Positions 18,050-44,511 of a stretch of DNA of 64,000 nucleotides are shown piece after piece. The position numbers and the translations under genes are program-made. Each line of letters opens with the position of its first letter. Position 1 is the stretch's first letter. This DNA is from Paramecium tetraurelia (taxonomy: Eukaryota). The DNA is taken from positions 1 to 64,000 of the forward strand of contig CT868040.1 in assembly GCA_000165425.1 (NCBI GenBank), read 5' to 3'. The notes beneath the pieces were generated by a model. That model made no database searches. It was not told the DNA's origin and was given only the letters and a program-made list of their open reading frames with translations.

Positions 18050-19281
18050 TTTAATTTTAAATTTATATATTTTTATTTAAGGGAAGGTAATATTGAAGTT
18101 GATTTCATTAATGACAATAAGAATCATTTAACTCATAGGATATATGGTAACATAATAAATCGACTTTATGATTGACTACCTAGATTGAAGAATTAATTAC
18201 CAAATAAAAAATGCTAGGTCTCATCAATAATCCTCCAAAATTTAAAAAAAAGAAATAGAGCGTTTCGATTAATTTTGTTCTAACTTTTTAGTTAAATAAA
18301 TAAAAAGAACTTATTTTGGATAATGAAACTTTAAAATTCGAAGCAACTATTGTTAATCAAAAGCATTTTAGTGTCCTTATTTTAGCATATAGAATTCTAA
18401 TGTACAAACAAATCAAGTGATGATGATGATAAATAAAATAGAGTGTAATTTAAGCAATGAGTTTTGAAACAGAATAATAATGAAGATTTGATAATTTCAA
18501 TCAATTAGGAACAATGGTGATTGTTTATAAATACATATTAGTAAAATTTAACTTTATTATTTCAATATATGTTTATTTTAACAATTAGATTGACTACTTA
18601 GACTATTAATAATAAAAGTTCTAATTATCATATTATGAAAATCTGTTGTTAAACATTAATTCAAGTATAGATCAGAATAAATCAAAAAATTTAATTAACA
18701 TAAACATTGCGTTTTATTCTTCATTCTATTTCTATATATATATTATTTCTATTAATCTAAAATTCTATTTTCGTGATTGTATTAAAAATTTCACACTCCC
18801 TAATTTGAAGATGAAAAATAAATTGAATAATAAGGTGAATAATTTAAATCAAATTTAATTAGAAAATAAGAATAAATTGAAATTCTAGAGATGAGATATG
18901 AAAATTGGCCCCCAAGAGAGTTCTATTTTATTTGTGCTTCTCTTGTTGATTAATGATAGGAATAGGGCAGCCTAAATTTAATTTTAACAGCAATTAAATC
19001 AACTAGAATATATTTTAATTAAAAACCATTGAGTTTAATTCTTATTATAAACTTCATAGTGGCATTTGAATAATTAAAATTCTAAATAATTAATTAAATT
19101 TGCGGAATATTCAAAATAATATATTATTGAGTCTGAAAATAGGCCTAGGTGATGGGGACAGCCTATTGGAAATGAAGGGGAATATAAAGAACATTCTAAT
19201 AATCGAATAATCGAGATTTATATGTTTAAATAAATTTTATGATTTAATATTTAAAAATACAAAATTTGTGATAAAAAAACA

Positions 19282-22200
19282 ATGAGTTTATAAGAATAGC
19301 TTCTTAATGTGATCCATGGTGTGTTCTCGCCAGATAATGCCACCAGATAAAAGGCAGAGGAGTTACTAGCCTAATATAGAGATTCTTAGCCAAGTGAATT
19401 TGTCACTGCAATGCTCCATCTATGCAGACATGAAGAATTAAAAATCAGATAGTTTGCTCCAGTGTACTTGAGAAACTCACTCAGTAACTATTCCCCCAAA
19501 AGTCATAAAAATGTATGGAGCCTTCTTGCTCCTGAGACCTAGGAGATAGTTAAAGTGTCATTGTTCTAATTGTTGGAACTCGAAACAAGTTCGAATGTGA
19601 GAAGCCAATTGTGTGACACAATAGGAGAACTAGGAGGATCACTCTTTGAAGATGAAACCAAAAATTCTTGGCCCAATCTCTTATAAACCTTGTGGTAATT
19701 GTTCTTGTCCCCAAAAAATGACTTGATTGAATGTGGATTCAAGATCTTAGCTAATCTTTTCACCTACGCAATTGATCTATTCAATAAGCATTAAGCAGAT
19801 CTTCACACTTTGTTCATCTAAGGTCTTGCTAGTTAAGATCAAAAGATTAAAACAGCCACAATCTAAGCAATTGGTAATTATGTAACAACATCTGAACCCA
19901 AGTAATACAGAGTATTCCAAGATCTCATCCCCAATCTAATGTAATCAGCATTGTCTGTCACAATCGCAGATCAATCTTTGGGTGAAGACATCATGGAAAC
20001 CTTCTCTGAAATCGTAGATGCCGAGCCAAAATTCTTTAGAAAGCAAATCAACGTATTTTTCAATGGAATTGCAGCCATCTTCAGAGAATCGTAAATTGAA
20101 TAAGGATTAAAGAGAATCGGAACAGAAACCTTGATAAGTTTAGCTGAGAAATTCCCAAGAGTCTTTAAACAAGACAAATAATACCTCAGTCAATTGGTAG
20201 AGATGATCTTCTTCCACATGATCCAAATAAGCTAAACAGTATCAGAAGAATGGATGAAACCAGCTGAAGGATTCAACGATGATATCCAACAAGACGAAGA
20301 TTGTGAAACCACAAGATTCGGTATGTCTTCAATTGATAGACTGATCGAATCTATTGGTGATAAGGAGATGTTACCAGTATTAAGTCCAATTGTTAATTAA
20401 TTATTACAACATTAAGATTGGAGATATAAATATGCTGCCATTTTGGCATTATCATAAGTTGGTGAATACATCGAGGAAGTGGCTGAAGTCAAACCAATCA
20501 TTGATTTAGTGTCTCCCATGTTGGGTGACTCAAATCCTATGATTAGATATGCAGTTTGTCATGCCATTGGTCAAATAGCTGATGACATGAAGCCTAAATT
20601 CTAGGAAAGCTACTTGCATCTCATAGTGCCCTAATTCTTAACCAGATTGTAAGTTGAAGATGTTCCAAGAGTCACATCCCACATTTTGGCTGCCTTAACC
20701 AATTTTGTCGAAGGAACTGAAAAGGGAATCGAATCATACTTGCAAAACCTCATCCAATTGACAATCCAATATTTGAACAATGGAATTTCAATTGTCAAGG
20801 AGAATGCCATGAGTACTTTGGCTGCTACAGCTGAATCTAGCAAATAATAATTCCTTCCTTACGTTAATGAGATCGTTCCATTGTTATTCTAGGTGTTCTT
20901 GAATCATCAAAACAAGGAATATAGATAATTGAAGGGATAGACAATAGAGACCATCACCTTGATAGCCTCAGCTGTTGGTTAAGCCTCATTTTAACCATTT
21001 TTGGCTGAAACAGTCAGAATTTTGATCCAAGTTCAAACAAGTCAATTGGAAGCCGTTGATCCTCAAAAATCATACGTTCTCTCTGGATGGTAGAGATTGG
21101 CTTTGGTTTGTCCTCAATAAATCGCAGTTTACTTGCCTGAAATCATCCCATCATTGTTCCAATTGGTTCAATAAGTATTCAAAGTACACACAGGAACTGC
21201 TGATGAAGAATTCCACACTTATGATAATGAAGAAGCTGAAGTGGCCATTCATATGTTATCTGTGTTCATTGAAGAATTGAAAGAATCATTCTTCCCTTAC
21301 TTTGATTCATGCACTCAATTGATCGTGCCTCTCTGCAATTTCAATACCGACGAAAACATTAGAAGTGCTGCCTGCAAATGTTTAGTTAGTCTCATTGAAA
21401 ATGTCAAAGCTACAAACAATGTTTAACAATTGGTCAATGGAGCTAAATACTTCTTGGGAATCATCTTGGAAGCTGCTGAAAAAGAATTCGATCCCATGGT
21501 CATCATTGAATAAGTCGATTGCATCAAAGAAATCATTGACATCGTTGGACAACCATTCATGACAACCGACGAGGTCACTTAACTTTCAGACAAAGTCTTT
21601 AAATTGTTGTTGGAATCAGACAAGAGAAAGGCTGAGAATGAGAAGATGTCTAAGGAAGAAGATGTTGACGAAGACGAAAAGACTGTCATCAAAGAGGAAA
21701 CAGAAACTGAAGAAGAACTCCATGTTAAAATTGCTGAATGCATTGGATCCATCTTCAAGACTCACAAAGATTAAGTCTAACCATTATATGAAGTCATTTG
21801 CAATCAAATCTTACCCAAAGTCTTGGACCCAACCTAATCTCCAAAAATGCACCAATTTGGTATCTTCCTCATTGATGACATGGTCGAATATTTGGGATAC
21901 CCATATGTCTAAGGCAAACTCAATGATTTCGCTCAAGCCCTGACAGTTTATGCTGTTGATAAGGTTTGCTTTGTCAGATAGGCTGCCGTCTATGGAATTG
22001 GTATCATGGCCCTCAACACACCAGAGGTATATTAAATTTAAATATCATAATAGTAATTGTACATCAATGTTGCTCCCATGTTATCCAAAGCCCTTGTCGA
22101 TTCCTTAAAGGTCGAAAAGAACCAAGACGACACAGAAAAATAACATGGACATGCCAGAGACAATTCGATCGCTGCCTTAGGAAAAATCATCAAATATCAA

Positions 22201-22570
22201 TCAAAATCCTTAGGAGGTGATCTTGCCTAAGGACTTCAAACTTGGCTACATTTATTACCTCTCAAATATGATAAACCAGAAGCTCGTCTTCAACACGAAT
22301 AATTGGCAGACTTTGTCATTGCAGATTGCAATCAATTGGTAAATGGAAAACCAGAAAATGCTTTACAAGTATTATCTTAAATTAATATCTTTTTAGATTC
22401 TCAAAGTATTTGCTAATTCCTACAAGACAAAGAGATCTAGTGAAGCTATTGATACAAAGATTTCAAGTGCCTTGAAAGTATTTGAACAAACCCAAGGACA
22501 AAATGTTTAAGCTATCTTTGGAATGTTAAGTCAAGAAGAGTAGAAGAAGCTCTTGGAAGTATCAAAATGA
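19282..22570 (+). CDS. IPO5: Importin-beta family karyopherin, importin-5/Kap121 type
   Basis: FSPDNATRQKAEE, SSIDRLIESIG, DWRYKYAAILALSQVGEY, LKGQTIETITLIASAVG, VRQAAVYGIG, ARDNSIAALGKI, WLHLLPLKYDKPEA; HEAT repeats; 2 introns near the 3' end. Confidence 0.93.
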
Positions 22571-22590: not shown

Positions 22591-25500
22591 TCATAAATTA
22601 AAAAATTTATCAAAAATTTCTAAATCATGGATTATCCTCTTCTCCTCATGAATCCGGATATCCTCTGCTGTTAATTACAAATCCTCCATCTGCTCCTCTA
22701 ATTTTCGATGGTTCTATATTTATATTCATATAATGTACCTTCATGATCTCATTCTCTTTTATCAAAATTTGTCTTCTTTTCATATCAACTCCATCACTTG
22801 CATTTCTATTGGCTAAAACACTCTCCAATTGCATTTTTACTTTCGGATTGCATATGTGACAGAAAGGCTACTATAAACAACTCTGGTGTGTTGAATGAGA
22901 ACACTTTCTAATTAAAATGTGTTGATGTTAGTCAATCGTAATCAATTCATCGCAATTACTACACACATTCTAAATTTCTGGACTACTAGCCTAGAAAAGT
23001 AACATATTATACATTTTGATGAAATATTTGTTACTTAAATCCAAGGTACGTTTGCAATTCAATAAAATAACTTTTATACTAGATTCTATACTTTACTCTT
23101 TCATCATAAATCAAATTCTTAAAACTCCATTTAATCCACACCAATCTGAAGATTTCTATTTGTTCTTCCATCAAATTAATCAGTTCCTCAATACTCAAAA
23201 AATTGTAAAATTCACACAGTCTTGTATTGATCACCTATAAAATTGGTATCATATTTTGATAATTTTGTTTAGTGATTTATTCCGATAAAGCCCAAATCTG
23301 AGAATGAGTCTCTTGATTGAAAAGTTGATGACCTATTTCTAAAAATGTGTTCTTATCATTATGAGATAGATTGTCTTTGCATGTCTAAAATAGCAAATCG
23401 AATTTCAAGTTCAAAATCTCCTTTGAAAAAGACTATAATGTAAAGCATTCATGTAAGTAATCAAGCAAGTTTTATATGAAAAATTTCATAGCCATATCAA
23501 ATTTACCAACTCTTGCATATATGTATCCCAACCCTTCTTTGTGTTTTGTTTCTAAAAATATAATCTCCAAATCATCCAAAGCAAAATTATGAATCTTATC
23601 TAAAACCTGATGAGGTGTGTGAATGCAACATGCTGTGATTAATAAGGTTCGTAAATCTTTATTAGATGGCCCTAATGACTGAAATAACTCCATGTATCCA
23701 TCAGTAATTTACTCTCTCTTCATCAACTTGTATTGTTCTTAGGTGGATAAGGTAGGGACTATTTATTTTAGGATCTGCAAAGTTTAACTATTTCCCAAAA
23801 GAGTATCAAAGTAAAAATCCAAGGCTTTTAAAGTTTGTTCTCTTTTTAAATTGAGTTGTCTTTCAAGCCAAAGCATAAAATACTTTTTATTTATTTTCAT
23901 CAAGCACAGATCAATCTACTTATAGATATCAGGAGCAAAGAGTGACTTAATATAGTTATCATTTGACAATTCAAACAGCTCATTTCTTAAAAGAGGTTTC
24001 AAATCAAATTATTCCAAAATGTTTATTATTAATTAGAAATTCTTACTATCAGATACAAGATGTTTTAATGATCTTACGTATATTTCTTCATAAAGCACCA
24101 TACCCTTTATTGACCCTATAAATTTACTAAATTCAATCCCCAAAGCATGATGGGTGACAATTAATTATGACAAACTCTAATAAATTTTATTTATAAAAGC
24201 CACTAGGATAGGTTTTTGGTGATTGAAATACTTTTATAATTATTGAGAATTGAAATATGAGGAATAGTTCATAGCAATTTTTAGAATTTCGAAAAGTTCT
24301 TTTGGGAAATGAATTCCGAAAATCGTTAAAATGTCTTCAATTAACAACCACATAATGACTTATTCGAAAGCATGTTAAAACCTATCTTAGGGAATCCTTT
24401 CATTTGGGAATAAAATCTATTGAAATGTCAATTGAATAAACCATAGCGATTTCAATAACATGATTTAATTCTTGGTTTTCAAAAAGTTGGAGTACATCTT
24501 TTATAATGGAGTAATATAATCATGATCAATACGAGGACAGACAACCATTAATGGTGTATATAGGTCATTTTCTTGACAAATTTAGAATATAGTAGTCATA
24601 TCAAAGCCCTTTGGATCTAATGACAATATTAATTGTTCTACAATTTCTGATTTATTTATCACTTTATAATGTGTAGATATTTGAAGTAGTAAGTCATTTG
24701 GAATTTGTTTAATTTACTTAGTTAGAATAAATTCTTCTAAGGATGCCAACAATTACGAATATCGATGAAACTTAATTAAAAGCGTCTTCATGCCAGTAAA
24801 GATATATTACTGTTAATTGCAATGAATACAATATTAAATAGCTTAACATATAGTTTAAGACCATTCTTCGTATTTAAATTATTCTGAAACCTTTTACGAC
24901 TCAATACTTTATCCAACTAGATTAATAAATGTTCTGCAGATATCTATTGAAATGTCAGAAAACACTACCCTTTAATCATAGGTAGTTTGAGGGAGTGCAA
25001 AACAATGGACTTAATTCCAATATAATGTAATTCCAAAAGATAAAATATCATACCAATTTTATTTAGTTTCTGCTTTATCTATCATCACTTTCAAATAATC
25101 CGACCACATCTGCAGTTTAATCCTTTTAACTAATGGGAGAGTCAGAATGTAAATGAATCTAGCATTAGAAGTAATGCAATTCACATAGACAGAGACCATT
25201 TATTAGCCATTATTAATTTATAATGGAAAATTCATTATATCTCCTAAAGGTGTGATTGATTAAATTGCTTTTTCTGTTTTATTGGACAAATAATTCATTT
25301 ATTTTCTTAGTGTATTTCTAGAATCTTCAGTAATGATATCTCTATTAAAAAACTAAGTATTTAAAGTAACAATTTAAAATTCTTTAGTCAGAACTACTAA
25401 CATATCCCTAGATAACCAATTACAAGAAATAATGGTATTTAAAATAAAAGAATATTTTTAAATCAATTGTTGTTTTTCAACAATGTAAATTTCAATATGC

Positions 25501-26619
25501 GTTCCCCAAGATACTGCTAATGCAATCTCAACCATTTCAGTGTATTCTTCTGTGTTGGTAAATTATCCCCAACTAGTACAAGGATATGTTTAGCCGTCTA
25601 TCTATCTTTTGATTCGTTTTATAATTTATGATTACTAATCTACTTTCATCACTATGACTTACTCTAAACATGAGAAGGCAATATACTCCTATTTCCAAAT
25701 AGAAATTTGATAAAATGGATGGATCTGTCTATATGAATGTTAATAATGGTTACCTTGGCATCAGTTTTTCTATTTCAATCTAATGTGACCAGAGCATTTT
25801 GGTGATCTTACATATAGAGGTTTAGCCCAAGTAATCAGAAATGATGAATTAATTTTCATTGAAAAACTTCAATGATAATAAAGGTTCTTAATGTTTAATT
25901 TGTTTTAATTGACTCTTAGTGTTTGGATCCCATAAGATGATTGCGCAATCTTCATAGCCAGCAACTAAAAATGATTAAGTGTTGTCAATTGCACTGACTT
26001 TAGAATTGTATTTCAAAACTGCGCTTAGTTAATATAAATACCAATGAAATCATCATTAGATGCAGAATAAACTAAAATCTCACCAATTGAAGTTCCTATT
26101 GACAAGAGATTGAATTAGAAAGCAAGGAGACAAGGCTGACCAGATAATTTCTTTAATTGATTAGAAATTAATTGTAAATCTTGGATCTCAATATTTTCAA
26201 TTTCGATATTATTGTTAATTAATTCTACATTCTCCAAGGTTGTTTCCTTGATGATTCTCTCTTATTTGTCAATTTAATCAATTAATGATTGAGGTTCTAT
26301 TTCATCTTCATTATTTGAGGATATCTCAATTTTAACTTCTTCTGTGTATTATTATTCGAACTCCTACTCAATATACTTCAATATTAATTCTTCATATTCT
26401 TTTTTTTCACCCTTTAGTGTCACTTTTAATTTTTGTTTTTTCTCGCTCAAAATTTAATTAGCCTTGGATTTTCAAACATAATCTTACTTTTTCAATGTTC
26501 AAATCTTTTATAGAATTGTCACTTTCATTTAGGATATCATCGATCTCTAGATTGGATGCATCATTCAGATCATTTTCATCTTCTGCCAATAAATCCTCCA
26601 AATTAAACATTAAATTCAT
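22591..26619 (-). CDS. VPS8: Vps8 (CORVET subunit): acidic N-terminus, WD40, alpha-solenoid, C-terminal RING-like
   Basis: LSIGTSIGEILVY, LVAGYEDCAIILWD, LAVSWG, LEEFIL, EQLILSLDPKGFDMTTIFQICQENDLYTPLM..DYITPL, C-terminal CSHSTHQSC..CHIC; start could be 26619 or 26610. Confidence 0.85.
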
Positions 26620-28738: not shown

Positions 28739-29781
28739 ATGGGAGGTGGTTCTAGCAAGGAGGATGAAAATCAAGTGAATCTCGATAAGTATTTATAAAG
28801 TGCAGAATATAAATAAAAACTAAATGCTGTTTATTCAGGATATAATAATCAATAATAAGCTCTGCATGTTCCATAACATTAGGATGATGATGATGATTAC
28901 ATTAACGATGGTTATTAAGGGATATAAATAAAAACAAAGCCATAGATCGCCACCATTTAGTCAACGACTCTTAGTGCTCAATAGAATGATGTCTATATAA
29001 TTAAATCATCATTTAAATTTGTAATCATAATTATGAATACTAGATTTAAATAGGAGAGACAACCTATTAATTAGCATTCTTATATACTTGTCCAGAACAA
29101 ACCTAGGTCGATGTGTGGTTTTTGGGTCAAGAGAATTTGAAAACAGGGGAAATTACATCTCTTTACGGAAATACCTAATTATAAAAACAAATCTAAGGCT
29201 TCTATGTTCAAAAGGGATAAAACCAGGATTTTTCATAAAACAAAGTGATTCTTGATTTGAAATTAATAAAAATCGAATCTATGAAGTAATATCAGATGAA
29301 ATAGGATGAATTTTCATTTCCACTCATAGTCAAAATTGTAAGTAATTGACATACGATTTTAGTCAAAAGTCAATCTAGATCATTCCTTTACTTATTATTG
29401 CACCGTGGAAAGGAGTCAAAACCAATTAGTTGCATAATGTATGGGAAGCAAATTGAGAGTAATAATAAATTCTATCATGCTAGATCAATGGTAAAGAGTT
29501 CTTGACTAAGGATGTTTATGGGATGAATGATAGTGTCTTAGGGAAGAAGGATGACAAGTAGATACATTGAATTATTATCTTTAGTGAAAAGGAACCTTGC
29601 AGAATTTGCTTAACGAATATCATCGATACCATGATTTAACCATGTCAACATGTCATTTTATGTTAGGAATGCTGTTAGAATTTGAGGATGACAGGCCAGA
29701 GATGTCCGATATGCAGATCAGGTAGATATTATTTGTATTTTAGAGATTAAGGAGTTTATTATAATTGCAAAAGCAAATTGA
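28739..29781 (+). CDS. MGRN1/RNF157/LOG2-like C3HC4 RING E3 ligase with N-myristoylation motif
   Basis: MGGGSSK start; FPLIVKI, NGKEFLTKDVYGM, then CRICLTNIIDTMIQPCQHVILCQECCQNLRMTGQRCPICRS; 5 short introns. Confidence 0.88.
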
Positions 29782-29807
29782 AATATTATAAATATTTTTA
29801 TTATAAA

Positions 29808-30633
29808 ATGACTGAGTTCAAGGAAGTATACTCATTTTGTATTTAGGATAAATTCTTTAATAAATCTGGAGATTCGGAGGATTCTGCTGACAAGCTGAAA
29901 AAGAAAATACAAAAATCTAAACATTAGGGTGGAATCTCGACGTCTTCTAAGATTAGAGAAATGTTTAAAAAACAACAATTTAAGGAGATTGTAAATTGGG
30001 CTGAGAAGGATACCAGCAACACGATTATCCATGAATATGATGAGATTAAGGTGAATTCACAAACTTTGAAAGTAGGATAAAATGCATTAATTAAAAATGC
30101 GAATAATCCATCTGAAGATTATGTAGGAAAAATATAAAGAATAATTACAATTAATGAAAATAAATCATCTAAACTTATTTGTCTATGTGAAGTCAGATGG
30201 TATCCACGATAGTCAATAATAGGTTTTATCGTAAAAGTGAAGTCATTAAATTTAGACCTTAGGCTAAGAGTTGGATTTCCAACAGTGAGGTTTTTAGTAC
30301 TACTTGTACAGATTATATATTGGCATCAGCCATCTTATCTCCTTGCATCATATACTCTTTAGAAGAATATGAAAGTGCACAGACTTTGGATAAATGCACA
30401 TTCTTTACCAGATTAGGATGGATACCAAGTAAAAACAGATTTGAAGGTTACACAAAATTGTAAAATCATTGTACTTGTAAATAACCATTGAATCCTGACT
30501 TGCCATCAATCTAGGTATTCAACACCCAAATATTTAGTGTGATAAATGCCAGAAATGGTATCATATGAATTGTGTTGGAGTTACTAAAGCGGACTATGAT
30601 TAAAAAGAATACATCTGTGGATGTTGTAGATGA
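29808..30633 (+). CDS. BAH-PHD chromatin reader, EBS/SHL/EPR-1-like
   Basis: BAH: LKVGQNALIK..DYVGKI..EVRWFYRKSE..EVFST..PCIIYSLEEY..FFTRLGW; PHD: HCTCKQPLNPDLPSIQCDKCQKWYHMNCVG..YICGCC; 3 short introns. Confidence 0.92.
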
Positions 30634-31608: not shown

Positions 31609-33381
31609 TCAGGTAGAATATTTTGAGATTTTTAGAAATGTAATTATCATTTCTTTAGTAATTGTTTCTGGTTCAATTACATCGTTTTGTTATTATTATT
31701 TCTATCCACTTTAATTCACCAAATTATTTTCTTTTGGCAATAATCTTCTTTTCGACAAATTTCTTATAGACAATTTTCTTTTTGGATATTTGAAGTTTTC
31801 AAGATCTGTGCATATTGTAGTTTTATTAAATGACAATTGTTCCAATTGGTCATACACTACAGAATGCGAGTTAAACAATAAACTAATTTATTTGCTCATA
31901 AATTTATTAGCAAATGAGGGCATTGTAGATTTCTTGTTGATTTTGGAGAGTATCCTATTAATGGTTATGGCTTAAATCTATTGAATAGGATAAAATAATG
32001 TATAAGTAAAGATGTACAGAGCCAAACAGATAATAAGAAATAATGCTAACAAGATGAAAACGTGAAGTCCCACTTAATTTAATAGTTTTTATTAAAGTTC
32101 TTCTTAGAAGCGTGAGTAAAACTATTAGTACTCCTTACTGCTCAACAACCTAGAGATAGCAAGATATGTTTTACATAATTAATTTCATTGAATATTCAGG
32201 AATTTCTTAGATTCCTATTATCATTTCTTATTCATATAGACTATTATAGAGGCAATACAAAGAAGATGAATGTTTACTCAAGAATGGACATGCGGACGTA
32301 TCGTTTTATGATTGCGTGTTCATTCTTTCCCAATCGCTCTGGTTGAATCCTGTGATGGATTAATTGTAAATGTAAAGGGGCAGTTAGTCAACACTTACAT
32401 GATACGGGTGCATAATCATGATCCCAGAGGTTGATACAAGATAAATGACTTAAAATCCAAATTCTTGGGAATTAAGAATTTAAATAATTTCTGCTCCCAA
32501 AAAATTGGTTCCCACTCCTCCAATTAACTCTAGATTTTCGTCTACAATAGGGAGCACCAAAGATAATCCTATTTTTTTGTCTGTAAACACTACAATTACA
32601 TATTATCAACATGAATTACGCAAATAAGGCTGTGTGAAAGATTTTGAATATTCGTTATATGGTTTCTTCTTATTATAGTTATTTCTGACCTCGATAAACC
32701 ATTCTCGCTTCTCCGGATCATAAGAGTAGATCCCCTGTCCTCTGTTAAGACATGGATAAACAGCATTGGTTTTTTCGCTGATTATGTATGAATACAAGAA
32801 TGACTAACTCAAGATATTCCCCTGATAGAGAATTTATGCATAGGTTTGAGTCTGCTCCTGAATCTTCATGCCTATGAGCTCATCTAAACTCAAAGGATCT
32901 TCAAAGGCTGTGATGTTGGAATAACACATAAAAGAATAGGAGATGTCAGAGCTGCCATAGCCTTTAACTATTCTTATCGGATCTGGTATTTAATTTATGC
33001 CTCCATACAGCATTTAGTAATCCGTATCAAGTTGTAAGGAGTGCAGTTTTACTTACTTTTTAGTCATATGATACAATCGATGAAAGGAAACGAGACTATT
33101 TCCATCTAGCATATGATATTGGATTTACTTAAATAAAAGACTCTGTTGAAGTACCCTTCATACAATTTAATTGTTTTCTCTTAGATTTTAACGGAGGTAT
33201 CAGCAAAAATTTTATTAGAAATCTAGGAAAAATACTGTTTCAGCAAAGAATAATGGATCAGATTTACTGAGAGAACATAAGAGACTATCACAAGGATAAT
33301 TATTGAGACCAAAATTATCAATTAGGTCCTCAATTTCAAATTATTCAAACAGGAAGTAAAAAATCCTCGTTTCTTCTCCAT
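31609..33381 (-). CDS. TM - extracellular dCache-like domain - TM - HAMP-like receptor (copy A)
   Basis: MEKKRGFFTSCLNNLKLRTQLIILVSIIILVIV (TM1); YDPEKREWF, FTQPYL, GLSLVLPIVD..IGGVGTNF, VIYLVSTSGIMIMHPY; TM2 VFILLALFLIICLALYIFTYTLFYPIQQI; intact frame with 3 introns. Confidence 0.85.
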
Positions 33382-33584
33382 TTCACCAATGAAAACAAAT
33401 TATTTAAATTTTATTAACACAAAAAATAATAATTAGAAACTACTTCTAAAACAAATGATTTAAATGATATCATTTATAATTATATATATTATAATTACTA
33501 AATTATTGTGTTTTAATTAATTGTTGTAACCACAAATTTGCTCTTTAGAAATTAGAATAAATGTGTATAAAAATACTTAAAGAT

Positions 33585-35357
33585 TCAATATAGAAGGAAC
33601 TTAGTGTTTTGTTATTTGAGAACTCTTTTAATTATAGAAATGGCTGCATTTTCAAATTCCTCACCTCCGCTGAAATCTTTTAAACATCTGAATCTTAACT
33701 CTTGATGTTGTTTGATTTAATCAATATTTCTCATAAATGCAGCCTGAGTTACAGAGTACTGTTTGGTTGGATATTGAATGTCTTCAAACTACTTGCATTC
33801 ACTTGTTTTTATTAATGATAATGATTCCAATTTATTCATCACAATCTTATAAGTTTGAACCAAAGAAACTATTTCATCACTCATCCAAACCTCTGCAAAT
33901 TCCGATATTTGCTATTAGTTTCTTCTCTGTTAAATAATTAAATTGATCGCCTATTTTTTTATGATTTCAATTGGATGAAATAATATTTATGTAACCACAA
34001 TAATCATTAAACAAAGAACCACACATGATACAAACAACCATATAATGTTATTGCTGGTTGTTTCATGTAAACTTATCTCTATTTTGGATTAGAAATCATC
34101 GTAGAATTTTAAGTACTCTGAACTACTCAGCAACCTAATGATACTTATAACTGCTTACATAATGAGTTTCATCTTGAATTCTGGAATTTCTCGAGTACCT
34201 ATAATCATCTCTTGATTATAATAGGAGTTGTATCTACATTTTAGAAGGGAGGACATTTTGGCAAATTTAGGACAAGAGGAATCTGAATTTAGATTTAAGA
34301 TATATTCCCAATCAGTCACATTGAAGCCAGTGATGCTTTCATTATAAATGAAAAGAGGCAGTTGTTCCACTGTTACTTTATAGGGATGCATTATCATAAC
34401 TCCCTTTTCGGATACAAGATAAATTATTTAGAATCCAAAAGAATTAGATTTCATCATTTCAACTATTTCTGAACCTAAGAAGTTCGAGACCACTCCTCCA
34501 ATTAAGGCTAAATTACTATCAACAATTGGAAGTGCCATGGAAAGTCCGATCTTTTTGTCCGTGTACACTATTTAATTAATTCAGATATTGATACAGAGAT
34601 ATGGTTGGGTAAATGTGTAATGATACTTATCATATGGCGATTTGCTTTCATAGTTTCTTTTCAGCTCAGTGTACCAATCTCGTTTTTCAGCCACATATTG
34701 ATAAATTGCTTTGTCTCTATTTAAACAAGGGTAAATGGAATTTAATTTCTCTTTCATAATATACGAGTATAAGAAGGATTGGTTGATTAAATTTCCCTAA
34801 TAAAATATTTGTGCAGCCGCTTGGAGCTACTCCTCTACTTTCAGGCCCACCTTTTCTTCGAATGTCAAAGGGTTATTGAATGATGAAAGGTTTGAGTAAC
34901 ACATGAAGGAATAGGAAATGTCATAATTGCCATAACCCTTGATAATTCTCAAGGGGTCTGGAATTTTTGTTGTTCCTCCATATTACATTTGAAACAATGG
35001 GTTTGTGTCGAGAGGGTGTAATAGTACTTGGTTTTTGGAAGTATGATATAATCGATGAAATGACACCAAAGCGTTGCCATCTGAAATGTAAAAAAAATAT
35101 TTACTTAAATTAAATACTTCATTAAAATGCTAGAAGTATTCTTCCATCATATTTGACAAAAGGTGATTTGAGTTATCTTGAAACATATAATCTGACAATT
35201 CTGACAAATAATTTATTAGTAGAGAATGATGAATTAAGTTGAGTGCAAGAACATAGGACACAATAATTAAGACCTGTATCGAAACTATAATAATAAATTG
35301 CGTGCTTAATTTTAATTTGCCTATACATTTTGTAGCAAAATGCCTATTTTATTTCAT
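33585..35357 (-). CDS. TM - extracellular dCache-like domain - TM - HAMP-like receptor (copy B, tandem paralog)
   Basis: KLKLSTQFIIIVSIQVLIIV (TM1); YVAEKRDWY, FTQPYL, GLSMALPIVD..IGGVVSNF, IIYLVSEKGVMIMHPY; TM2 IIWLFVSCVVLCLMIIVVTQILFHPIEII; same 3 intron positions as copy A. Confidence 0.85.
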
Positions 35358-42421: not shown

Positions 42422-43662
42422 TTATTATAAAATAATTAATTCTTAATACAAATAATATTAAAGCCTTCTGGTATTATATACTTTCTCCTCAAATTTCTAA
42501 GAGGATGCTCAGAAAATACAATTTGGAAATTCAAATGCAAAAATAGCTATTTTACTATAATTTGAAAATTAAGATTATGTATTATAATTGCTTGAAATAA
42601 TTCTATTATTATTTTTTTCATTTCATTTTTATCTTATAATAGAATATTTTTTTATGAAGAATTAAATTTTTGATTTTTGTTTATTTTCTCGCGTAAAATA
42701 AATTTTAATATTGATTTAGTTATTAGTAGGCCTTAAATAAAAAGTATTAATACTATTTTTCTTTATATTAAGTAAAATAATTTTTCTTACTCTATTTAAA
42801 ATATTTAATATAAATAGAATGTCTAAATATAAGCAAATAGTGATTAAGCTAAATTAGAAAATCTGGAAGCAATCCTGATTTTTCTCAGCCATTAATAATT
42901 ATATTTAATCAATAATATAACTTTCATGATTAGTTTATTAGTATTAAATAATTTGAGCAAGAAAGTGTACGAGATTAAGCTGAAACTATTCAAACTTTAG
43001 ATCAATTTCTTAAAGCAAATGAAAGATTAGAGATCAAAATAATTAGAGTCTAATAATCAGATGTTGAGGCATTAGTTATAAGTAGAGAAGTAATGATAAA
43101 CTTTAAGTTTAGGTTTAAAGTTTATCATGAAATTAGGTGCTCAAATAGAATTAGATGATTGGCATTATAATAAATTTCTTTAGCAAATTATATAATAAAA
43201 ATATCATACTCTTATAGAGCATATTAAATCATAGGGATAAATACAAATATCCATCATTTGATACAAGAATCATATTTTTTTTTAAATTAATGTTCAATAT
43301 TTGCTGATTTCTTCTTATTAACTTGATGAGAAAATAAAAGTTGATTGCAAAAAAGTATTAGGATGAGAGCAACTGTAAAATTTTGGTTCCTGAATTGATT
43401 ATTATAGCAAGATAAAAAGGATTAAAATATGAGTATCACTATTTTAATATTACAATTTAAATTACATTTTGAAAGCACATTAAAGAGTAATGTAAAATTT
43501 AATTTCAATTATCAATCATGTAATTAAAAAGGCCTAAAGAACTGAATTATGGACAAGATAATTTATGAGTGTGATCAGTTCAATTCTAGAAGCATTAATT
43601 TGTTTCTAGAATGAAGTATAATTGAAGTTTGAAATGATAATAATTCTAAAAATTATTAATTC

Positions 43663-44511
43663 ATGGAAGACATAAAATAGGTTCCGTCCTTTCTAATAAA
43701 ATTGTACGAAATTCTTGAAGTAATTATAACCCGCTATTCTTGAGTCTGAATAAGCGGCGATATGTTGGAACAAGGAGGGAACAACATTTCAGATCCAAGA
43801 CCCTGAGTTATTGACGGATCAAATTCTGCCACAATACTTCAAGCATCGCAATTACCAGAGTTTCTTGAGGTAGGGAATGAGTTAATCGGCTTAGGCAGCT
43901 TAATATGTATGGCTTTAAGAAATTGAAAAATAAATAAGGGAAGAATGAGTTCGTACATTAACAATTCAGAAGAGGAGTTAAGTATGAGTGACCTTATTAA
44001 TCTAAGAAATAACTTACTAAAGATTAAGCGTCGAAATCAGGAGGATATAAAGCAGAGTTTGGAAACTCTGACCAAGGAATTCTAATCGGAATCATATTTA
44101 ATTGAGCATGAGAAAATGAGAAGGCAGTTAATGCAGATGCAGTAGGAGCAACAGAGAATATTGTATGAAATCAGATTCTAAATGGATCGCAATCGTAAAT
44201 TGTAAAGAGAGACCCAGGATATCATCGATGTAAGTTACTATAAATTGATGTAGAAAATAAACCAAATGAAAAACTATTCAGTGGCAAAGCTTAATAAACT
44301 CGTGCTTATCATATAGAAGTTGCCTCAGGATGCCCAAATTAGCAAGATGGCTATGTTAAAGGATAAGATCTTACGAAAATTGGAAACGATTGAATAAGAC
44401 AATTGTCAATTAAAAGATATCTCTTTTGATAAACAAGAATCAAATAGTTATTATGAGCCAAATTTAACAGGAGTTAGAAGTCCTGCTGGATACTCACCTA
44501 AAACTAAATGA
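43663..44511 (+). CDS. HSF-type DNA-binding domain protein
   Basis: [70 protein letters not shown], then a coiled coil; 4 short introns. Confidence 0.93.

Follow-up and report, generated by a model that had tools for sequence, protein, structure and literature searches.

In this work we describe two genes, A and B, which lie in tandem on the minus strand of Paramecium tetraurelia contig CT868040.1, within a stretch of 64,000 nucleotides (nt) that was analysed as a whole and that we call the window. In our reading, to which we give a probability of about 55%, A and B are expressed tandem paralogs encoding Paramecium-restricted receptors that cross the membrane twice, expose a small-molecule-binding loop between the two crossings and would signal through a separate partner by means of their tail. 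An earlier reading made from the DNA letters alone (the sequence-only reading) had proposed a pair of bacterial-chemoreceptor-like proteins composed of a first transmembrane segment (TM1), a double Cache domain, a second transmembrane segment (TM2) and a HAMP domain, with no output domain. The TM1-double Cache-TM2 core, the missing output, the introns and a shared tail motif all stand in the present analysis, whereas the HAMP assignment is not established.

A and B are intact and transcribed tandem paralogs

The gene models were read on the minus strand with NCBI table 6 (ciliate code). Gene A (33585..35357) starts with the ATG at 35357 and stops with the TGA at 33585-33587, and its 4 exons at 35357-35105, 35080-34595, 34567-34159 and 34134-33585 (253, 486, 409 and 550 nt, stop included) encode 565 amino acids. 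It corresponds to P. tetraurelia GSPATT00035078001 / XP_001432995.1, and the spliced protein shows 100% identity over 565 amino acids to the annotated product of that gene (P0045); the UniRef name for the A product is "Cache domain-containing protein". Gene B (31609..33381), the tandem paralog downstream of A, has its ATG at 33381, 203 nt past the stop codon of A, and its TGA at 31609-31611, and is likewise divided into 4 exons (33381-33129, 33105-32620, 32589-32175 and 32149-31609, of 253, 486, 415 and 541 nt), which encode 564 amino acids. The two proteins are 49% identical to each other; identity rises to 96% between A and its P. octaurelia ortholog, and B is 82% identical to P0041 of P. 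pentaurelia and 75% identical to P0046. No third copy of the gene was found in the window with tblastn.

Each gene is interrupted by three introns, located on the minus strand at 35081..35104 (intron 1, 24 nt), 34568..34594 (intron 2, 27 nt) and 34135..34158 (intron 3, 24 nt) in A and at 33106..33128 (23 nt), 32590..32619 (30 nt) and 32150..32174 (25 nt), in the same order, in B. Since exons 1 to 3 measure 253/486/409 nt in A and 253/486/415 nt in B, the 3 intron positions and their phases are common to both genes, and gene models and exon lengths thus agree with the initial proposal of two intact paralogs sharing three intron positions. Intron 2 of A has a TGA inside; intron 1 of A (GTA...CAG) is in frame and stop-free, and the residues that it would encode occur neither in the annotated protein P0045 nor in any ortholog. 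In-frame TAA and TAG codons number 15 in A and 29 in B, the use of these glutamine codons in B being about twice that in A, and neither frame has an internal TGA. The GC content is 31.3% in gene A and in gene B and 29.1% in the window.

Both genes are transcribed. In the RNA-derived contigs of run X3, B is covered from 31667 to 33387 with all 3 introns removed (exactly 25, 30 and 23 nt), and A is covered from 33628 to 35357 with introns 3 and 2 (24 and 27 nt) removed; intron 3 appears as a 24-nt gap at 34133 in A and as a 25-nt gap at 32148 in B. Over both genes, 5 of the 6 introns are spliced out in these contigs, and A intron 1 (35081-35104) is retained in the single X3 contig covering that site. 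This intron ends in CAG and not in TAG, the other five being removed, and if it were retained, the long extracellular helix would gain 8 residues with the frame unbroken. In the three poly-A RNA-seq runs X21-X23 we counted 62, 86 and 59 reads over the pair, with the first mate nearly always on the plus strand, which fits RNA produced from the minus strand.

A and B are predicted two-pass membrane proteins

Each protein consists of a short basic N-terminus, TM1, a loop of about 373 residues (373-375), TM2 and a tail of 131-134 residues. The 20 residues that precede TM1 in A include 5 Lys/Arg and no acidic residue. TM1 of A (residues 21-39; 35241..35297, minus strand) reaches a score of 2.81 in a Kyte-Doolittle 19-residue window and TM2 (residues 413-431; 33990..34046) a score of 3.04, and the loop between them (residues 40-412; 34047..35240, a span that includes introns 1-3) holds the double Cache domain of dCache_1 type together with 4 Cys and 4 N-x-S/T sequons. 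In B the corresponding elements, on the same strand, are TM1 (residues 21-39; 33265..33321; score 3.13), the predicted extracytoplasmic double Cache loop (residues 40-414; 32062..33264, introns included) and TM2 (residues 415-433; 32005..32061; score 3.03). The hydropathy scan therefore shows a domain flanked by two strong transmembrane segments. Hardly any variation is seen at the loop cysteines 145, 203, 345/347 and 357/359 in an alignment of 29 family sequences. From the charge distribution, together with the loop cysteines and sequons, we infer that both ends are cytoplasmic and that the loop lies outside, a topology that would give the domain the extracytoplasmic placement characteristic of dCache_1.

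The loop is a bacterial-type double Cache domain

In both proteins the loop forms a double Cache sensor of bacterial type (dCache_1), with no interruption of the domain. A profile built from 18 family members matched, in a search of the PDB, Mlp24 with an E value of 9.1e-9, a diguanylate-cyclase sensor with 1.1e-5, Mlp37 with 2.8e-5 and PctA with 1.2e-4, and besides Mlp24 there were 10 more dCache sensor sequences at E <= 0.008; the same profile reached CACHD1 only at E 0.75. The Pfam dCache_1 family (PF02743, curated cut-off 45 bits) was recognised below threshold on the window pieces, with E 7e-4 (19.6 bits) for A and 8.5e-5 (22.6 bits) for B, and it matched 7 of 9 close and 3 of 6 distant relatives with E values from 5e-4 to 1.4e-9. 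No VWA family of Pfam matched the window pieces or the family proteins, so that a VWA insertion in the domain was not found.

The fold was assessed on AlphaFold2 (AF2) models of close relatives of A and B, the confidence of which is moderate. The A-type model, P0001 (96% identical to A), has a mean predicted local distance difference test score (pLDDT) of 59.0 and the B-type model, P0011 (76% identical to B), one of 66.7. With Foldseek, the A-type model had Mlp24, Mlp37 and PctA on top, at E values from 3.8e-8 to about 1e-6; the B-type model was compared, without Foldseek, to 48,161 representative chains. The relatives' models present the arrangement that defines the dCache_1 fold, in which two PAS-like modules in tandem come after a long helix. 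Hydropathy, the family profile against the PDB and the fold matches of the relatives' models thus all agree with the proposed order of TM1, double Cache and TM2. The RxWY helix and the PY strand lie about 23 residues apart, as in bacteria, and an extra insert of about 45-50 residues, poorly modelled and absent from the bacterial domains, precedes the first strands of the distal module.

We could also locate in the proteins every motif quoted in the sequence-only reading, namely LNNLKLRTQLIIL and KLKLSTQFIII at the N-termini, YxxxxRxW[YF], TQPY, LPIVD..IGGV and YLVS..G.MIMHP in the loop, P-I-x-x-I after TM2 and LSxxKTxxCxxxExxxYP in the tail. Another part of the A loop (residues ~67-112) contains the strongly conserved F-x-L-N-G-N-x-L-[VI]-S-F-H-R-L-Y, encoded at 35069-35113 (minus strand) across the intron 1 junction. 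For residues 67-112 the search pointed to the EF-hand loop of calaxin (E 0.012). We rejected this weak match as a domain call, since Arg and not Glu occupies the last loop position and AF2 places the segment within the long helix. A calcium site is therefore probably absent here.

Pocket residues of amino-acid sensors are conserved in part

In bacterial amino-acid chemoreceptors, the Y, R, W and further Tyr residues of the ligand-binding motif hold the carboxylate of the ligand and an Asp holds its amino group. We examined these positions in an alignment of 32 full-length rows, comprising A, B and 30 database proteins, one of them identical to A. In A, the segment Y213-Y221 (YVAEKRDWY; 34671..34697, minus strand) lies in the membrane-distal module, aligns to YDPRKRPWY of Mlp24 and represents the N-terminal half of the dCache_1 amino-acid motif. 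This motif (AA_motif of dCache_1AA) was given by Gumerov et al. 2022 as Y-x4-R-x-W-Y ... Y ... D (PMC8915833), and the family residues Y213-x4-R218-x-W220-[YF]221 and Y245 align to the Mlp24 residues that define it. The Y, R and W are each found in 31/32 rows; position 221 is Y in 23/32 and F in 9/32, and position 245 is Y in 23/32, F in 7/32 and another residue in 2/32. The position of the Asp for the amino group is more variable: 17/32 rows, among them A and B, have N, 8 have I, 3 (P0013, P0014 and P0029) have D and 4 have other residues. The strict dCache_1AA motif is consequently absent from A (Asn275) and from B (Asn), both of which retain its carboxylate-holding half. This pattern suggests to us a ligand that carries a carboxylate, with a specificity that may differ between subfamilies.

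The tail is conserved, HAMP-like and free of output domains

The first part of the tail, residues 437-490 in A (33813..33974, minus strand) and 439-492 in B (31828..31989), is a predicted succession of helix, connector and helix that we call HAMP-like on the basis of Pro437, a heptad pattern and profile-profile comparison with hhalign; HAMP membership is unproven. A proline 6 residues past TM2 (Pro437 in A) is present in 31/32 rows, as is Ser468, and averaging over the family puts the hydrophobic positions of the two amphipathic helices at 438/441/445/449 and 471/474/478/481/485/488; the S-D-E of A is replaced by S-K-Q in B. In the monomer AF2 models this segment takes the form of helix, loop and helix at low confidence. 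A hidden Markov model (HMM) of eight Escherichia coli HAMP domains, with limits set by Pfam, gave E values of 0.24-5 covering the TM2-Pro junction only. When compared with the E. coli HAMPs by hhalign, the family scored 12.67 over 20 columns in local mode (probability 1.4%) and 8.36 over 54 columns in global mode (probability 0.35%). None of 200 column shuffles reached these scores (maxima 11.7 and 5.9), this being a lenient control that also destroys helical periodicity, and control segments of the same proteins scored 7.0-7.9 compared to 11.9 for the tail. Look-alikes of the tail in the ESM Atlas include HAMP clusters at 0.86-0.90, which we take as a lead only. The HAMP label of the sequence-only reading is therefore not established, Pfam and HMMER being negative and the hhalign probabilities very low, although no shuffle equalled the real score.

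The segment is followed by a motif that is conserved across the family and that the first description of the pair had noted as shared by A and B. It corresponds to LSLIKTSECKQFEDIQYP in A (residues 488-505; 33768..33821, minus strand) and to LSFNKTTICTDLENFKYP in B (residues 490-507; 31783..31836), and its family-wide form in the 32 rows is [LF]-S-[FL]-x-K-T-x-x-C-x-x-x-E-x-x-x-[YF]-P, with K in 31/32, T in 26/32, C in 30/32, [YF] in 31/32 and P in 30/32. Beyond the motif the tails diverge.

The tail matched no Pfam family and no PDB chain (E <= 10). The signalling domain of methyl-accepting chemotaxis proteins (MCPs), PF00015, gave no match, the tail having only about 134 residues, and E. coli MCPs used as positive control matched PF00015 in the same library at E 1e-56 to 1e-63. 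Two matches on the B tail, TrbL_3 (E 0.006) and YWFCY (E 0.016), were discarded as hydrophobic noise, both lying below the cut-offs and over TM2. Longer fused relatives were likewise not found, with 0 of 5,765 candidates of 1037-2960 amino acids at E <= 0.01, a result that counts as weak evidence. The claim that these proteins have no recognisable output domain is in this way sustained by Pfam, by the PDB and by the lack of fused relatives.

The family is restricted to Paramecium among named relatives

A phmmer search with P0001 against 1.84 billion representatives returned 26 matches at E <= 1e-3, 10 of which were examined: 6 full-length Paramecium proteins, from P. sonneborni, P. tetraurelia, P. 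octaurelia and P. bursaria, and 4 unnamed Logan fragments. A profile search among proteins of 282-1036 amino acids, the reach of which was limited by a word pre-filter, gave 19 matches, all from Paramecium, and the named relatives as a whole come from this genus. P. tetraurelia has at least 8 members, six named GSPATT entries in addition to A and B.

In a maximum-likelihood tree of 31 rows, from which P0045 was dropped as a duplicate of A, the A-type clade (support 99/100) and the B-type clade (100/100) are well separated, a third type (97/100) is sister to the B-type at 83/90, and seven very long branches are unplaced. The terminal branch of B (0.16) is longer than those of its P. pentaurelia partner P0041 (0.062) and of A (0.023). 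The A-type and the B-type clades each split in two groups with the same species, the pattern expected from a whole-genome duplication. P. tetraurelia also has a second A-type/B-type pair with consecutive locus and accession numbers (GSPATT00032134001 and GSPATT00032135001), and five further pairs of A-type and B-type proteins are found on contigs of equal size. The paired loci together with the split clades therefore suggest that the tandem duplication is older than that genome duplication.

The closer match of the family to bacterial sensors than to alpha2delta, at identities of 13-18%, would fit a separate bacterial origin, and an origin from bacteria by horizontal transfer has been proposed for eukaryotic Cache domains generally (PMC4822843). 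Among the nearest ESM Atlas look-alikes of P0001 there are two eukaryotic clusters of proteins of 535-566 amino acids in which chytrid fungi are the commonest recorded phylum, and in one such cluster 12-19% of members carry dCache_1, MCP-like_PDC_1 or HAMP. These look-alikes indicate that the same layout may exist in zoosporic fungi.

A and B would act as partner-coupled chemosensors

Taken together, A and B are probably sensors of a small molecule that relay the signal to a separate partner, and a role as partner-coupled chemosensors is plausible from their anatomy. The earlier idea of a stand-alone small-molecule receptor and candidate chemoattractant receptor fits this anatomy and is plausible too, with the qualifier that uninterrupted bacterial-type dCache receptors have already been described in other eukaryotes (PMC4822843). 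In the mechanism that we propose, a carboxylate-bearing small molecule, not necessarily an alpha-amino acid, would bind in the distal pocket of a dimer; the resulting movement would be transmitted along the stalk helix and TM2 to the HAMP-like hairpin of helices; and the conserved tail would then change its binding to, or its modification by, a separate partner, which could be a kinase, a cyclase or channel, or a scaffold. A precedent for the last step comes from a Cache_heme-HAMP receptor without an output of its own, which, as described in the preprint, binds a Ser/Thr kinase through its HAMP, with ligand binding enhancing the phosphorylation of a HAMP Thr by this kinase (bioRxiv 10.64898/2026.05.25.727664). 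Chemokinesis towards bacterial metabolites would be one candidate physiology, and further candidates in Paramecium are the hyperpolarising responses to such metabolites and the link between glutamate and cyclic AMP (cAMP) (PMC8208649, PMC4588038).

Several results weigh against this proposal. All Pfam dCache_1 scores, at 20-38 bits, are under the 45-bit cut-off. The AF2 models are only moderate, and poor at residues 103-212 of the A-type model, at residues 115-149 of the B-type model and over most of the tail, so that they do not establish the geometry of the pocket. The Asp for the amino group is missing in A and B, and the class of ligand is therefore not readable from the motif. As for the tail, PF00672 (HAMP) matched neither the tail pieces (E <= 1) nor 15 family proteins (E <= 0.1), the family profile found no HAMP-bearing PDB chain at E <= 10, and hhalign leaves HAMP at the 0.35-1.4% given above; in addition, only 8/32 rows, all of A-type, begin helix 2 with Asp-Glu, which is lacking in B, and the connector is about 5-6 residues longer than those of E. 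coli HAMPs and lacks the usual Gly. Finally, expression in the three poly-A runs is low, and the neighbouring genes (importin-beta, Vps8, RING and HSF-type) give no functional hint.

A bolder version of the proposal would make the family the missing Paramecium receptors for bacterial attractants of carboxylate type, for instance acetate, lactate, folate or glutamate. Here a domesticated module of bacterial origin, multiplied by tandem and whole-genome duplication, would be coupled to hyperpolarising conductances or to adenylyl cyclase through the HAMP-like hairpin and the K-T-x-x-C...[YF]-P tail. We regard this version as speculative and rather improbable, and if it were true, a bacterial-style chemoreceptor input would be driving a eukaryotic excitable-membrane output that steers swimming.

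The same lack of an output domain could be read in another way, with A and B as constitutive auxiliary subunits of an ion channel or membrane complex that tune trafficking or gating, ligand binding being secondary or absent. This is how the best-known eukaryotic Cache proteins, alpha2delta and CACHD1, are described to act (PMC8915833). However, A and B lack the VWA insertion, keep the RxWY-PY gap at the ~23 residues seen in bacteria and cross the membrane twice, and the near-invariant triad of ligand-contacting Y, R and W would be hard to explain without a ligand, and we therefore consider such a role unlikely.

Where the loop is exposed is a further point to weigh, since the predicted topology places it outside the cytoplasm and nothing narrower. 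A and B could thus be sensors of an internal compartment (food vacuole or phagosome, contractile vacuole or secretory organelle) whose lumenal Cache domain reports the products of bacterial digestion or luminal chemistry in place of the outside medium. Paramecium eats bacteria, the closest sensors bind bacterial metabolites and transcript levels are low, all of which would agree with this location; the Cys pairs and sequons, however, fit the cell surface and the lumen equally, and we hold an internal site to be doubtful. That A and B are decaying remnants of a transferred bacterial sensor gene, deprived of its kinase or MCP output and of any signalling function, is very improbable in spite of the missing output domain, the confinement of named relatives to Paramecium and the horizontal transfer proposed for eukaryotic Cache domains (PMC4822843), because conservation and expression disfavour it: both frames are intact, with ciliate codons and introns, both genes give spliced transcripts, A shares 96% identity with the P. 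octaurelia ortholog, at least 3 well-supported subfamilies and deep divergent members extend over six Paramecium species, and the cytoplasmic motif and the pocket residues are near-invariant.

Neighbouring genes

The reading frames flanking the pair encode importin-beta-like, Vps8, RING finger, coiled-coil and HSF-type DNA-binding proteins, and none of them is a kinase, a cyclase or a channel, as expected for a eukaryote. The importin-beta/IPO5-like HEAT-repeat frame and the Vps8-like frame are long and lie, in that order, at 19243-22440 (plus strand) and 22950-26049 (minus strand). A C3HC4 RING finger frame at 29571-30488 (plus strand) and an HSF-type DNA-binding frame at 43433-43945 (plus strand) flank the pair at a distance.

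Comparison with known Cache receptors

Paramecium is a classic model of chemosensory behaviour. The ciliate is drawn to bacterial metabolites such as folate, acetate, glutamate, cAMP, biotin and ammonium (PMC8208649), and the portions of the chemosensory reviews that give stimuli and some pathways do not name a transmembrane receptor family of the present kind (PMC8208649, PMC4588038). We found no paper on these proteins, either by protein identifiers or by Cache domain in Paramecium or ciliates. The domain call itself brings nothing new, as UniRef already carries the Cache label; as far as our literature searches reach, a eukaryotic family that is two-pass, free of VWA, devoid of output and endowed with its own tail motif is not in print. 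The family combines a predicted ligand pocket of bacterial type outside with a conserved, enzyme-free tail inside, it extends the short list of eukaryotic Cache proteins by a two-pass form that has neither an output nor a VWA, and, as a multi-gene and lineage-specific family, it offers concrete targets for RNA interference and ligand screens.

The eukaryotic proteins with the same fold differ in their architecture. According to Gumerov et al., every eukaryotic dCache_1 protein that these authors found has a VWA inserted in one of the dCache_1 domains (PMC8915833), and Dataset S3 of that work includes Litonotus as the sole ciliate (PMC8915833). Alpha2delta and CACHD1 resemble A and B in being membrane proteins of eukaryotes that have a dCache_1 fold but lack an enzymatic output, and they were among the fold matches; they are described, however, as carrying VWA inside the Cache domain and as single-pass or lipid-anchored (PMC8915833), whereas A and B are two-pass, have no VWA and give a far worse profile score with CACHD1 (E 0.75). 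The Naegleria Cache-cyclase and the plant and fungal Cache histidine kinases are closer in one respect, being eukaryotic two-pass receptors with an uninterrupted bacterial-style Cache (PMC4822843), but according to the same source they bear the cyclase or kinase on the same chain (PMC4822843), and no member of the Paramecium family does so.

On the bacterial side, ESM Atlas look-alikes include bacterial clusters of 361-437 amino acids with dCache_1 and HAMP, again as a lead only. The CHH (Cache_heme-HAMP) receptor of Pseudomonas azotoformans, as presented in the preprint, resembles A and B in having an extracytoplasmic Cache, a transmembrane segment and a short helical module without an enzyme, and its output goes through a separate bound protein, as we propose for A and B (bioRxiv 10.64898/2026.05.25.727664). 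It differs, by the same account, in its single haem-binding Cache, its bona fide HAMP and the kinase gene located in the same operon, whereas A and B have a double Cache, a HAMP that is unproven and uninformative neighbour genes. The closest parallels are the ligand-binding domains of the dCache_1AA chemoreceptors Mlp24 and Mlp37 of Vibrio cholerae and PctA, PctB and PctC of Pseudomonas aeruginosa, which share with A and B the long N-terminal helix, the two PAS-like modules, the position between two transmembrane segments and the aligned Y-x4-R-x-W-[YF] and PY residues. Unlike these chemoreceptors, A and B are nuclear genes with introns and ciliate codons, contain the insert of about 45-50 residues, have Asn in place of Asp in the pocket and carry, instead of an MCP signalling domain, a tail of 134 residues.

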